Below, in pieces: positions 9,437 through 15,400 of a DNA stretch of 37,454 bases. The number at the start of each line of letters is the position of its first letter. Within the stretch, counting starts at the first letter, position 1. The DNA comes from a virus (lineage: Duplodnaviria > Heunggongvirae > Uroviricota > Caudoviricetes): positions 1 to 37,454 of the IMG/VR virus record IMGVR_UViG_2531839195_000016; one strand, given 5' to 3'. Position numbers: made by a program.

Positions 9437-12400
9437 TAAGACATTCCCGCTCTTACACATCCCAGCCCTGAAAAAGGGCATTACCAGAAACAAATCTCTA
9501 TGGTTTTGCGTTTCTTTGCGAAGCCAACTCTATCTAATCATTAAGGAAATTATCTATGGGTACTATTGCAACTAAAAGCAAGAAAGCGGCTCGCATCGAG
9601 TCAGCCTTGCTGAACAAACTGGCACTGATGGGGCAGAAGACATTCGCTCGAGCAATGGGGGTTCCTGAATATCAGGTAAGCCGATGGAAGAATGGTTTCT
9701 TCTCGCAGGTAAGCATGATGCTTGCTGTTCTGGAATACGGAATCGAAGACGATGAAATGGCTGAATTGACTAAGCGGCTTGCCGATTACCTGACAAAAGA
9801 AAAAGCCCCGAAGAACGGCGAATTCTTCGAGGCCTAATGTAGAAAGACTGGATCAATCCACGGGAGTAATTATGACAAAACGTCGTAAGAAATACCAGGA
9901 AAAAGAAGAGATTCGACACCCTGATTCACCTGAGGGATTAGTGGTAGCCGCAGCAAATAACAGGGCGTTCGCAGAGCGCCTTGTTGGTGTTTACAGACTA
10001 GCCAAAGCAGGAGTGAAACATGGGCGTCGTTAAGTTAGCTGATTACAGGCCTCAACTGGAGGTCGTGGAGCATCGCGTGGCAGAACTCGAAGATGGCTAC
10101 ACTCGGACTGCAAACACACTGTTAGAAGCCGCCATGCTTTCTGGACTTACTCTACATCAGTTACTGATTGTTATGGCTGTGTGGCGCAAGACATACGGTT
10201 ACAACAAAAAATAGATTGGATCGGAAACGAACAGTTCGCTGAACTCACTGGCATGGCACCAACCAAATGCTCTACCGCCAAAAACGAGCTTATCAGAATG
10301 GGAGTTCTCATTCAGGTGGGGCGTCAAGTTGGTATGAATACAAACATTTCCGAGTGGAAAACGAAAGTTAACGGATTCGGTAAAACATTTACCAATTCGG
10401 TAAAACAAACCTTCACCAAATCGGTAAAAAGCAATTTACCGAATCAGTCAAACACAAAAGACAATATACAAAAGACAATAAATACAAATACCCCCTTACC
10501 CCCTAACGGGGGCGGCGATGGGCAGGTTAAACCTGAACGTCGCAAGGCAGAACGAATCGACTACGAATCCTTCCTGAACGCCTACAACACCGAAGTCGGT
10601 GACAGACTGCCACACGCTGTTGCGGTCAACGAGAAACGCAAACGCCGCCTGAAGAAAATCATCCCGCAACTGAAAACGCCAAACGTGGACGGTTTCAGAG
10701 CGTATGTCAGGGCGTTTGTGCATCAGGCCAAGCCGTTTTACTTCGGAGACAACGACACGGGCTGGACGGCCGATTTTGATTACCTGCTGAGGGAAGACTC
10801 GTTAACGGGGGTACGGGAAGGGAAGTTTGCAGACAGGGGGATTGCATGAAACAGGATATCGAAGCGAGCGTTATCGGTGGCCTGCTGATTGGTGGATTAA
10901 CACCAACCGCCAGCGACGTTCTGGCAACGCTGGAGCCGGAAGCGTTTTCAATTCCGCTCTACCGGAAAGCCTTCGAGGTTATCCGCAAGCAGGCGCGAAA
11001 CAGAAACCTAATCGACGCGCTGATGGTTGCCGAGGCGTGCGGAGAGGAGCATTTCACGTCAATCCTGATGACCAGCAAGAACTGCCCGAGTGCCGCAAAC
11101 CTGAAGGGATATGCTGGAATGGTCGCGGATAACTATCACCGCCGTCTGGTGCTGGAAATCATGGATGAAATGCGTGAACCAATCCAAAGCGGAACCATCG
11201 ACGCATCGAGTCAGGCGATGGATGAACTTGTAAAGCGTCTTTCAGCCATCAGAAAGCCCCGTGACGAGGTAAAACCTGTACGGTTAGGGGAAATCATCAC
11301 TGACTACACTGACACGCTTGACAGGCGTCTGAGGAACGGAGAAGAGTCAGATACCCTGAAGACCGGAATCGACGAACTTGACGCCATCACCGGAGGGATG
11401 AACGCAGAAGACCTGGTGATTATCGCCGCTCGTCCTGGTATGGGTAAAACCGAACTGGCGCTGAAGATTGCCGAAGGCGTTGCAAGCCGCGTTATTCCTG
11501 GTTCTGACGTCCGGCGCGGAGTGTTGATTTTCTCGATGGAAATGAGCGCATTGCAGATTGCAGAGCGGAGCATTGCCAACGCCGGGAGGATGTCGGTTAG
11601 CGTGCTGCGAAATCCTGCATCGATGGATGACGAAGGCTGGGCGCGTGTTGCTAACGGCATGAGTCAGCTTGCAGATTTGGATGTATGGGTAGTCGATGCC
11701 TCGCGGTTATCGGTCGAAGAAATACGCTCAATCGCAGAACGGCACAAACAGGAAAATCCAAACCTGTCACTCATCATGGCGGATTATCTTGGCCTGATTG
11801 AGAAGCCGAAAGCAGACCGCAACGACCTCGCAATTGCTCACATCTCCGGAAGCCTGAAGGCGATGGCGAAAGACCTGAAAACGCCAGTTATCTCCCTGAG
11901 TCAGCTTTCGCGCGATGTTGAGAAGCGACCAAACAAACGCCCGACAAACGCAGATTTGCGTGATTCAGGAAGCATTGAACAGGACGCAGACTCAATCATC
12001 ATGCTCTATCGGGAAGCGGTATATGACGAGAACAGTAGCGCCGCGCCATTTGCTGAAATCATCGTGACGAAAAACCGTTTTGGCTCGCTTGGTACGGTTT
12101 ACCAGCGGTTCTGTAACGGACACTTTGTTGCATGTGACCAGGATGAAGCCAGACAGATTTGCACAGCATCAAATGCACCTGCTGCGCGTGGCAGACGATA
12201 TGCACAAGGGGCTGACGTATGACCATCTACATCACTGAGATAATAACAGGCCTGCTGGTAATCGCAGGCCTTTTTATTTGGGGGAGAGGGAAGTGTGGCT
12301 GACTGGCAAATTCCAATCATCATTCTTGCCGGAGCTTCGCTGGTTGCTGGCTTTATCCTGCTGAAAAAGCATAAAGACCGTGATCAAAAAGTTGAAGTTC

Positions 12401-15400
12401 TCTATGGGTATCCAGCGAACAGCACAACATGGCTGACCATTTACCACTACCGAAAATCAGGACGCTGGGTATTCGAATGGGATGATCTGTTCGCTGAAAA
12501 GCGACCAAAGTCATGGGGAGACATCAGCGAATGCATGATGTTTGAAGAAAGAAAATCCGGCGCAACCCGAGAAGAGTTTAACGAAGCGTGGGCGCGATTA
12601 AGTGAGAGAGGGTATTTGTGAGCAAGTACGAAAAATTAGATCAAAACATTCTTTCAATGCTGAGTGAAAGACCAACACCTGTTTTTGATATCTGGCTTAA
12701 ATGGCGGAGCAATGGAATGTATATCGAAACCATCGATCGCCGTATGCAATACCTGAGAAAGAAAGGGCTTGTTGCAAATGTGCGTGGGAAGGGTTGGGTG
12801 AAAATTAACCTGTCATAACGGGGATTGATATGGACGATAGCTTAGAAATATTTGAAGAGTGGTGCGCTGATGAACTTGGTGTCTCCGCTTACTTCATTCG
12901 ACAAATGCGAAGCAAGAATATTTTGGGCGTGATTGAGTATAAACGAGTTGAAATAAACAAGAGATACAGGGCTTGGATGGCCGCAGTTCGCGCCGCCGGA
13001 GTCAAAGTGAAGGAGTGAGTATGAGCGCATACGAAGAAATCATGTTAGCCCTGCGATTCTTTTTCGGTGTGGAAGAAGATGAAAACGTAAATGAGATTAT
13101 CGGACAAGACCATGACCCGATAGGGACTATTGCAGCTGCACTTGACGATTACAGGAGCGTAAATGGTGAGGAAACTAACGTTTGAACTAAGAAGCCCCAT
13201 CCATCAGCAGAACGCCATTCAAGCTATCCAGCAAATCCTTCCAGACCCAACCAAACCAATCGTAGTAACCATTCAGGAACGCAACCGCAGCTTAGACCAG
13301 AATCGAAAGCTTTGGGCTTGCCTTGGTGACGTTTCGCGTCAGGTTGAATGGCATGGTCGCTGGCTGGATGCAGAAAGCTGGAAGTGTGTGTTTACCGCAG
13401 CATTAAAGCAGCAGGACGTTGTTCCTAACCTTGCCGGGAATGGATTTGTGGTAATAGGCCGGTCAACCAGCAGGATGCGTGTAGGCGAATTTGCGGAGCT
13501 ATTAGAGCTTATACAGGCATTCGGTACAGAACGTGGCGTTAAATGGTCAGACGAAGCGCGACTGGCTCTGGAGTGGAAAGCGAGATGGGGAGATAAAACT
13601 GAATGAACAAATACCGACTTATTTACGCAGATCCGCCTTGGCAATATCGCGACAAAGCCAACGATGGCAATCGCGGTGCTGGACATAAATACGATGTTAT
13701 GAATGTTCAGGACATTTGCCGACTGCCAGTATGGGATTTAGCGGATCCAGAATCTTGCTTGTTAGCGATGTGGTGGGTGCCGACACAGCCAGCCGAAGCG
13801 CTAAAGGTAATTGAGGCGTGGGGATTCAGGTTGATGACTATGAAAGGCTTTACTTGGCACAAAACCAATAAGCACAAAGGCAACAGTGCGATCGGAATGG
13901 GGCATATGACCAGGGCAAATAGCGAGGATTGCTTGTTTGCCGTTCGAGGGCGGTTACCTGAGAGAATGGACGCTTCAATATGCCAGCACTTTACCGCACC
14001 GAGAATGGAGCACAGTGCAAAACCACCGATCGTAAGAGACATGTTAGCTAAGTTGCTTGGCGACGTGCCGCGCTGTGAGTTATTTAGCCGCGACAAAGTG
14101 ACCGGGTGGGATATGTGGGGAAATCAGTGCGACTCCGATTTTGAACTTGCTCCCGGCATGGCGATTAAACCATGCAAAATGGTGATCGCATGAAGCACTG
14201 TTATCGATGTGGAGAGCGAAAGGAAGACGATCGCTTTCGACCAGGACAGCCTTACTGGAATCGATGGTGTCTCCGGTGTGAAAGAACACCAACAGGGGTG
14301 TTACCACTACCGCAGGAAAAGGAGGACGTGTGGCGAGACAGCGACGAAGTATCACCGACATAATCTGTGAAACTGCAAATACCTTCCAACGAAACGCTCC
14401 AGAAATAAACGCAAGCCAATCCCAAAAGAATCTGACGTAAAAACCTTCAACTACACGGCTCACCTGTGGGATATCCGGTGGCTAAGACATCGTGCGAGGA
14501 AATGACAATGCTTTTAATTCAACCTGGATTTGGACTTAGCATCAAAAAAGGCCACATGTTTGGCGAGAAAGAGTCACAACGAAAAATGATGTCTATCCGG
14601 TTGCCATTTATCAGTATTTATTGGCTAAACAGGGAGGCAACAAATTATTGGTATACATGCGCCAGAGCAGCATTTAACGACCCTGACTGGTTTGTGGAAA
14701 ACCACCACGCAGTTCGTCAGGCAAAGAGAAAGGCCAACATGACATACATGAAGGCGTATCGAAAAGCATGGAAAGAACACCGCGATCGATACCAGCAAGA
14801 TATGGAAAAGCTTGAATCAGAAAACATGGAATTAAGACGAAAGCTTGGTGAAGCAAAACGAGACATTGATGCTTACAAGCGACTTTTTAATGGTGAAAGC
14901 CATGCTTAGTCCATCCCAATCTCTTCAATACCAGAAAGAAAGCGTCGAGCGGGCTTTAACGTGCGCTAACTGCGGTCAGAAGCTGCATGTGCTGGAAGTT
15001 CACGTGTGTGAGCACTGCTGCGCAGAACTGATGAGCGATCCGAATAGTTCAATGTACGAGGAAGAAGACGATGGCCAAACCAGCGCGAAGACGATGTAAA
15101 AACGAAGAATGTCGGGAATGGTTTCACCCTGCATTCGCTAATCAGTGGTGGTGCTCTCCAGAGTGTGGAACCAAGATAGCACTCGAACGACGAAGTAAAG
15201 AACGCGAAAAAGCGGAAAAAGCAGCAGAGAAGAAACGACGACGAGAGGAGCAGAAACAGAAAGATAAACTTAAGATTCGAAAACTCGCCTTAAAGCCCCG
15301 CAGTTACTGGATTAAACAAGCCCAACAAGCCGTAAACGCCTTCATCAGAGAAAGAGACCGCGACTTACCATGTATCTCGTGCGGAACGCTCACGTCTGCT

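Follow-up and report, generated by a model that had tools for sequence, protein, structure and literature searches.

Four small genes that lie between the replicative helicase gene and ninB of a lambdoid virus probably occupy, as four separate cassettes, a mosaic slot for accessory genes in the delayed-early rightward (pR) operon. The window analyzed here comprises positions 1–37,454 (37,454 nucleotides, nt) of IMG/VR record IMGVR_UViG_2531839195_000016 (Caudoviricetes), a lambdoid, P22-like phage or prophage of Escherichia coli or Shigella with HK446, Sf101, and Sf6 as top DNA matches (~97% identity over parts of 8000–20000). The slot spans positions 12295–13185, where an earlier note on this sequence had described four short, overlapping open reading frames (ORFs) between the helicase terminator and ninB. 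Four plus-strand ORFs are present at this place: ORF1 (108 amino acids (aa), GTG start, 12295–12621; Sf6 gp46 family, phrog_5903), ORF2 (66 aa, GTG start, 12618–12818; Sf6 gp47 family, phrog_7185), ORF3 (62 aa, ATG start, 12830–13018; a rare allele of a variable cassette position), and ORF4 (54 aa, ATG start, 13021–13185; BTP1 gp48 family, phrog_1603). The description as overlapping fits two junctions, ORF1/ORF2 (4 nt, GTGA) and ORF4/ninB (23 nt), whereas ORF2 and ORF3 are separated by 11 nt and ORF3 and ORF4 by 2 nt. In the automatic ORF call, the ORF4 frame is open further upstream, to a TTG at 12973 (70 aa).

Based on their translation signals and patterns of selection, all four ORFs are genuine protein-coding genes. 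The earlier note had allowed for translation signals being absent on closer analysis, whereas a purine-rich Shine-Dalgarno motif stands 5–8 nt before each start (GGAGAGGGA for ORF1, GAGAGGG for ORF2, GGGGA for ORF3, and AAGGAG for ORF4). Purifying selection was likewise detected in each gene: for ORF1, the proportion of nonsynonymous differences (pN) was 0.32–0.33 versus a saturated synonymous proportion (pS) of 0.81 when compared to Pantoea and a metagenomic phage, while the ratio of nonsynonymous to synonymous substitution rates (dN/dS) was 0.20 for ORF2 against its Enterobacter homolog, 0.09 for ORF3 against its Citrobacter homolog, and 0.11 for ORF4 against its BTP1 homolog. Invariant motifs persist in alignments with homologs at 40–60% identity, and NCBI PGAP calls identical frames, lengths, and spacing for ORF1, ORF2, and ORF4 in E. 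coli prophages, as well as a matching 189-bp gene for ORF3. That some of these ORFs could be chance open frames in a non-coding spacer might be argued from their very short length (54–108 aa), from the GTG start of two of them, and from the rarity of ORF3 (5 of 5426 complete E. coli genomes). This explanation is nevertheless refuted for practical purposes by the correctly spaced Shine-Dalgarno motifs, the purifying selection in four of four ORFs, the motifs retained in 35–65%-identical homologs from other genera or phage types, and the confident fold predictions for ORF1 and ORF2.

The left border of the slot can be placed by comparison to lambda. The DnaB-type replicative helicase gene (458 aa, 10846–12222, plus strand; its counterparts in HK446, Sf6, and E. 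coli prophages bear the annotation replicative DNA helicase) is the final replication gene of the rightward early operon, and is followed by a tR2-type intrinsic terminator (12248–12281, plus strand) found by terminator scan and RNA folding. Its hairpin (12248–12271) consists of an 8-bp stem with six G-C pairs and an 8-nt loop, then the T-run TTTTTATTTGG, with a folding energy of −17.8 kcal/mol (z = −2.0), and its counterpart is annotated as tR2 in Sf6 and Nil2. A scan of 11800–13800 against Rfam yielded no RNA family. In lambda (NC_001416, excerpt L030 1567–1647), an identical boundary (ATGACCATCTAC...AGGCCTGCTGGTAATCGCAGGCCTTTTTATTTGGGGGAGAGGGAAGT), terminator, and Shine-Dalgarno motif GGAGAGGGA are found directly before the ninB ATG, so that ORFs 1–4 are inserted between this boundary and ninB relative to lambda, and one and the same Shine-Dalgarno motif serves ninB in lambda and ORF1 here. 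The identity of the ninA/tR2 boundary in the two phages thus marks it as a conserved recombination joint, at which the lambda slot is empty. The right-hand border is ninB itself (Orf recombination mediator, 147 aa, 13163–13606, plus strand), whose counterparts are annotated as NinB in E. coli prophages, Sf6, and BTP1.

A hydrophobic 27-aa ORF (12219–12302, plus strand) runs across the terminator and the boundary sequence, and is a putative ninA-type coding sequence. Its start codon shares bases with the helicase stop (ATGA) and it ends with a TGA 5 nt past the ORF1 GTG, which makes the chain of coupled stops and starts unbroken from the helicase through this ORF to ORF1 and ORF2. The same 84 bp correspond in Sf6 to gene 45, "similar to phage 21 NinA", and also to boundary sequence bsq6. 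In rare prophages, one G is lost from the G5 run at 12280–12284, within the Shine-Dalgarno region of ORF1 (loci L016–L018, ~2560–2570), and the ninA ORF is fused in frame to ORF1. These fusions, 133–137 aa in length and with two hydrophobic helices, form ~10 small clusters versus ~640 sequences of the 108-aa form, and are probably incidental indel variation.

Slot contents vary across related phages and prophages. Sf6 carries genes 46, 47, 48, and 49 in this slot, BTP1 carries four other genes, including a DUF4752 gene, and then gp48, and E. coli EC01307 and EFF60 carry ORF1, ORF2, a different third gene, and ORF4. Across the 5426 complete E. coli genomes, ORF1-ORF2 was found in 108, ORF3 in 5, and ORF4 in 26, while the whole 1-kb arrangement was found in none (best coverage 88%). 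The third position behaves as a cassette whose conserved flanks extend into the gene itself, as its alleles start with M(D/G)(E/D)S... and finish with ...RAAG(V/I)KVKE; since these alleles are alike at their ends only, recombination boundaries must lie inside the coding sequence. Among the alleles compared (loci L001–L004; window 12820–12860 and 12990–13020), the first ~10 and last ~10 codons are common (MDESRKQFEE..., ...IRAAGVKVKE), and the interiors are unrelated or rearranged.

The four genes do not form one machine or module, since each occurs elsewhere without the others, and this independent assortment among prophages means that "cluster", the term of the earlier note, does not apply in a functional sense. 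ORF1 occurs without ORFs 2–4 after PolA in 48–78 kb metagenomic phage contigs, in IME207, in the 237-kb phage Goslar, and in a Pantoea prophage, and is followed by other genes at loci L017 and L018. In E. coli, a DUF7301 gene stands before ORF3 in place of ORF1/ORF2, and ORF4 or directly ninB comes after it. ORF1, ORF2, and ORF4 all have relatives in other, unrelated phage groups. A functional unit made of ORF1 and ORF2, or of all four genes, for instance a membrane sensor with a winged-helix regulator or a toxin-antitoxin-like pair, would be in line with the GTGA overlap between the ORF1 stop and the ORF2 start, which suggests translational coupling, and with the joint presence of ORF1 and ORF2 in Sf6, as well as in 63 of 108 E. 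coli genomes that carry at least one of them. We regard such a unit as very unlikely, because ORF1 relatives have no ORF2 neighbor in Oslo, at L017/L018, in PolA-type contigs, or in IME207, Goslar, and Pantoea, ORF2 relatives have no ORF1 neighbor in Enterobacter prophages and IME207-type phages, and phage NX263 carries both genes ~24 kb apart. Overlaps of this type (ATGA/GTGA) are also general in nin regions (PMC8022706).

The position of the slot also suggests when these genes would be expressed. Transcription of ORFs 1–4 would require N-modified RNA polymerase to read through tR2 and so be limited to lytic growth or induction, with the genes silent in a repressed prophage. This dependence on N antitermination is suggested by the packing of the genes behind a tR2-type terminator, by the lack of a promoter-like site before ORF1, and by the lambda-type N gene that the phage encodes (7397–7774, minus strand, Pfam scan). 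A promoter scan yielded no promoter-like site between the terminator and ORF1, and two sites across the region versus 2.3 expected. A promoter-like site over the ORF3 start (12825–12852, TTGATA-16-AATATT, 9/12) was dismissed, since site counts are those expected by chance and its −10 element lies inside ORF3; this sigma-70-like match is probably non-functional.

The most likely role of the four genes, as judged from their arrangement and relatives, would be in non-essential lytic-cycle accessory functions, i.e., as dispensable helpers adjusting host or phage processes, with prophage-expressed exclusion less likely. They would be dispensable because the lambda slot is empty, and a lytic-cycle role is favored over a lysogeny-specific one because relatives of ORF1, ORF2, and ORF4 occur in phage types that we take to be lytic (Goslar, IME207-type phages, and Stephanstirmvirinae). 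The earlier note had mentioned exclusion among the possible functions, and such "moron" genes, expressed from the prophage for superinfection exclusion or lysogenic conversion, with ORF1 acting like P22 SieA, HK97 gp15, or T4 Imm, would share two features with the slot. ORF1 is a predicted small single-pass inner-membrane protein, a common format of exclusion proteins, and the slot is variable among prophages, as moron sites are. This possibility is however disfavored, and appears unlikely overall, given an intrinsic terminator directly upstream, promoter-like sites at chance level with none before ORF1, genes packed and coupled into the pR operon, a conserved ORF1 domain predicted to be cytoplasmic, and relatives of three of the four genes in those presumably lytic groups, which have no prophage state.

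ORF1 is a predicted bitopic (single-pass) inner-membrane protein with an N-out/C-in topology and a transmembrane (TM) helix at about residues 5–27, all assigned computationally. The N-terminal membrane anchor proposed in the earlier note is thus upheld: a 19-aa segment (QIPIIILAGASLVAGFILL) has a mean Kyte-Doolittle hydropathy of 2.28, the AlphaFold2 model (mean predicted local distance difference test (pLDDT) score 86, >90 in the core) comprises a helix at residues 5–27, four strands, and a helix at 92–104, and a hydrophobic N-terminal segment, variable in sequence, is kept in 49 of 80 family clusters. The positive-inside rule would place the conserved ~80-aa domain in the cytoplasm, since lysine and arginine are more numerous on the C-side flank of the TM helix in 30 of 31 distinct TM-bearing relatives (mean 3.45 vs. 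0.19 on the N-side); the N-terminus of these relatives is acidic.

ORF1 belongs to phrog_5903 (hmmscan E = 1.1e-75 over residues 1–108 of 108), as do 21 of 21 diverse relatives. An indexed search assigned 58 clusters to the family, and an exhaustive profile search of 1.84 billion representatives 37 clusters, all of which are small proteins without known domains, with family members ranging from 73 to 137 aa; two weak profile matches to long repetitive proteins were judged spurious. The family shares the core (V)xYGYP....TWLTIYH.R....W.FEWDDLF..(G)RP followed by a C-terminal helix. Neither sequence and profile searches, which returned nothing significant, nor a Foldseek search with the model (best E = 0.66) linked ORF1 to any PDB entry, and a comparison to a viral structure library recovered only uncharacterized homologs from Goslar and IME207.

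Some members of the ORF1 family are devoid of a TM helix. These include proteins with a short amphipathic segment in its place (e.g., MKLLKWLF..FTPDKK), and others with a C-x-L-G-W-H-K element and, in the hairpin that joins strands 2 and 3, a CxxC. Among the individual relatives without a TM helix (P0100, P0103–P0108, P0111, P0113, and P0118), most have an N-terminal C-x-(L/F)-G-(W/F)-H-K, and the CxxC is found in those aligned. This combination resembles a four-ligand zinc knuckle, a pattern that would suggest a zinc-binding ancestor, and the ORF1 core may derive from a zinc-ribbon-like unit.

The ORF1 domain was detected in 93 phage records, mostly IME207-type and seszw-type siphophages. In lambdoid prophages, ORF1 relatives follow either the DnaB-type helicase or, with one small ORF in between, a loader that resembles DnaC or lambda P, or they stand further into the nin region; elsewhere they are found after PolA (the 48–78 kb contigs), between primase and helicase genes (IME207), near an integrase (Pantoea), or among genes of unknown function (Goslar). 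None of these relatives has ORFs 2–4 as neighbors. ORF1 could act through partner binding at the membrane, as an anchored cytoplasmic adaptor or inhibitor using its invariant aromatic-acidic surface (FEWDDLF). A more specific role in phage DNA replication, such as anchoring the replication machinery to the inner membrane or modulating it there, might be read from the adjacency of the family to replication genes in three unrelated genome architectures (lambdoid helicase or loader, PolA contigs, and IME207 primase-helicase). We consider this improbable: phage early regions are dense with small accessory ORFs, which makes adjacency a weak argument, the Pantoea and Goslar members are found in other contexts, lambda replicates without ORF1, and ORF1 has no similarity to any replication protein.

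A broader proposal can be made for the ORF1 family. It may be a phage-only family with a fold unrepresented in the PDB and three types of N-termini (TM helix, amphipathic segment, and Cys/His zinc knuckle), spread over lambdoid, IME207-type, PolA-encoding, and jumbo enterobacterial phages, in most cases next to replication genes, and acting as a host-takeover or counter-defense effector at the cytoplasmic face of the inner membrane, with ORF4 likewise a small inhibitor of a host protein. Taken as a whole, we hold this proposal to be doubtful.

ORF2 is predicted to be a stand-alone winged-helix fold composed of three helices and a beta-hairpin wing. Its AlphaFold2 model (pLDDT 91.8) includes helices at residues 3–14, 22–26, and 36–48 and strands at 52–55 and 59–62, and all of the 50 best PDB matches listed in a fold search were winged-helix domains or proteins containing one (TM-score 0.58–0.75). 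These included CymR (TM-score 0.75), GntR-family proteins, Fur/Zur, IclR, BirA, Z-alpha, and MotA, mostly with probabilities of 0.9–1.0. At the sequence level, nothing in the PDB was significant, and the weak in-register matches to HTH_Crp_2, Rrf2, IscR, and the Rrf2 protein 1ylf (E = 0.55) were below the thresholds of the named helix-turn-helix (HTH) families (Rrf2, Crp, GntR, and MarR among those considered), with best scores of 13.6 bits for HTH_Crp_2 (cut-off 27), 11.8 for Rrf2 (cut-off 30), and 15 for the NCBIfam IscR family (cut-off 275). ORF2 is a full-length member of phrog_7185 (E = 1.2e-34) with a basic isoelectric point (pI) of 10.2, and its start is coupled to the ORF1 stop. The modeled fold suggests that ORF2 is probably DNA-binding, and its role could be that of a small regulator or a nucleoid-type binder, in concept similar to NinH.

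An indexed search recovered 20 clusters of ORF2 relatives, all from Enterobacteriaceae where the source was named, and tblastn identified relatives at 33–70% identity in 30 phage records, many of them from IME207-type siphophages. In the two siphophages checked (L031 1201–1392 and L032 1201–1452), the relative is located between a ParB-like/"DNA binding protein" gene and a DNA polymerase III beta homolog, and the NX263 relative is directly followed by a second small gene with a MarR-family annotation. A 150-aa double-HTH gene found before the Enterobacter homolog was considered as a paralog of ORF2 and rejected (hhalign probability 0.15%).

ORF3 reads as a short version of the usual occupant of the third position, reduced to an N-terminal module and a boundary tail. 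Residues 1–29 align to the Sf6 gp48 family, labeled PF26207 Phage_phiTE_015 (hhalign probability 96%), and its final 9 aa, RAAGVKVKE, match the IRAAG(V/I)KVKE motif of this family, i.e., the shared right boundary. When compared to the family pattern (M(D/G)ESRKQFEE(W), W..WQASR.AIEI, and IRAAG(V/I)KVKE), the ends of ORF3 match, and its center is only vaguely similar (RAWMAAVRAAG). The ORF3 family comprises 12 clusters from Escherichia and Citrobacter, all at least 75% identical, and phage records contained no ORF3 except for one 35%-identical stretch. This stretch, similar to the middle part of ORF3, is the N-terminus of a 157-aa Providencia phage protein with a DUF551 C-terminal half. Sequence and profile searches of ORF3 against the PDB returned nothing significant, and the protein may be a small helical, protein-binding modulator.

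ORF4 is an acidic 54-aa protein (pI 4.05), probably helical, that belongs to phrog_1603 (E = 1.5e-32 over residues 1–53). Its family displays the conserved pattern YEEIM.AL......IYEII.Q.HDPI.TIA.ALDDYR, and the overlap with ninB determines the tail beyond it. ORF4 was found in 10 phage records, comprising BTP1 and relatives, the S107 group, and three Klebsiella Stephanstirmvirinae myoviruses (137–147 kb), and has no relative in the PDB or Pfam. In the latter myoviruses, ORF4 relatives are found between nrdD and nrdG, a context unlike the nin region; they are 49–61% identical to ORF4 and lie directly upstream of nrdG, which they overlap or abut (L012 2501–2656, L027 1405–1656, and L028 1501–1659). 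ORF4, like ORF3, may be a small protein-binding modulator.

Several considerations weigh against the roles proposed here. For ORF2, only two of five AlphaFold models are confident, Foldseek E-values are modest (0.014–0.15), no named HTH family is matched at its Pfam cut-off, and winged helices can also be protein-binding modules. The partner-binding role suggested for ORF1 is generic, as its cytoplasmic domain has no relative of known function by structure or sequence, and the helical character of ORF3 and ORF4, probable for the latter, is a reading of their amino acid sequence only. N dependence is deduced from the layout of the region, and tR2 may be read through to some extent, or a weak promoter may have escaped the consensus scan. 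The lytic status of the Goslar, IME207-type, and Stephanstirmvirinae phages is presumed from general knowledge, and for each of the four genes function is something we infer.

As to novelty, the exact sequences of ORFs 1–4 are found in public databases as "hypothetical protein" (395 contigs for ORF3, at least 1000 for each of the other three), and one Shigella flexneri assembly lists ORF1, ORF3, and ORF4 under locus tags 002580, 002582, and 002583. By these sequence matches, the four are already catalogued genes, in a part of the nin region known as a mosaic hotspot. The earlier note had called them unrecognized, which holds in that they are annotated as hypothetical and that Pfam, NCBIfam, and PADLOC returned no significant match, and does not hold in the sense of new genes, since ORF1 and ORF2 are Sf6 46 and 47 and all four are catalogued. 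Its statement that nothing was recognizable likewise gives way to the winged-helix domain of ORF2, the ends that ORF3 shares with the Sf6 gp48 family, and the PHROG matches of ORF1, ORF2, and ORF4, all of these to families labeled "unknown function". The note had also considered a clear homology to known nin proteins, and none was found: BLASTP of ORFs 1–4 against lambda Ren and NinB–NinI gave a best E of 0.13 over 21 aa, and none of the Pfam Nin families (NinB, NinD, NinE, NinF, NinG, NinH, and NinX) matched at E ≤ 1. Scans of the four proteins against Pfam and NCBIfam yielded nothing above threshold, and the PADLOC defense models only a 12-bit match between ORF2 and the HTH portion of a CARF model (E = 0.028), below significance. 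A literature search by accession, PHROG identifier, Sf6 gp46/gp47, nin-region accessory or anti-defense genes, and phiTE_015/DUF7301 retrieved nothing on these proteins.

The four-gene set seen here is one of many shuffles, and of little weight as a discovery. The gain is instead one of annotation, with ORF1 described as a predicted bitopic membrane protein with a conserved, putatively cytoplasmic domain, ORF2 as a predicted stand-alone winged helix, ORF3 as an apparently truncated, chimeric member of the gp48-type slot family, and ORF4 as a conserved acidic mini-protein. The recurrence of ORF1, ORF2, and ORF4 in unrelated lytic-type phages makes them reasonable and cheap candidates for phage accessory-gene screens (toxicity or counter-defense), with no particular result predicted. 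Residual interest lies mostly in the ORF1 family, with its three N-terminal formats, its wide spread in enterobacterial phages, and no fold match in the PDB.

The surrounding genes follow the lambdoid order. Pfam scans located cI (8488–9120, minus strand), cII (9556–9837), and O (end at 10849) upstream of the slot, and an MT-A70-family methyltransferase (13603–14193), NinG (15071–15682), the NinI phosphatase (15788–16528), and Q (16525–17148) downstream. The MT-A70 gene comes directly after ninB, with overlapping stop and start, at the position of lambda NinC. A 147-aa ORF (14466–14909, plus strand) between the MT-A70 methylase/NinD-like region and NinG had no Pfam match at E ≤ 0.001.

Compared to known systems, the region shares with the nin regions of lambda (ren, ninB–ninI) and P22 its operon position, its tight packing with overlapping stops and starts (PMC8022706), and the same tR2 boundary, and differs from lambda in that the latter has no gene between tR2 and ninB. 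Among known regulators, the Rrf2/CymR, GntR, Fur/Zur, IclR, and BirA domains have the same H1-H2-H3-beta-hairpin topology as the ORF2 model, which superposes over its whole length; unlike these proteins, ORF2 would be a bare 66-aa domain, without a dimerization, ligand, or sensor part. The Sf6 gp48, 933W L0091, and phiTE_015 proteins occupy the same cassette position as ORF3 with identical flanks, but members of the gp48/phiTE_015 family are 67–106 aa long, whereas ORF3 (62 aa) is without the central W.AWQASR.AIEI and the C-terminal half. ORF4 is 91% identical to BTP1 gp48 (STMMW_03621), which has the same ninB-overlapping position and differs in its C-terminal tail, where it overlaps a different ninB allele. 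The closest counterparts are Sf6 genes 46 and 47 (NP_958221 and NP_958222), which are the same genes as ORF1 (99% protein identity) and ORF2 (98.5%), with 98.7% identity at the DNA level. They are found at the same place, after the helicase, gene 45/ninA, and tR2, and are followed in Sf6 by gp48 and gp49 where the present phage carries ORF3 and ORF4.

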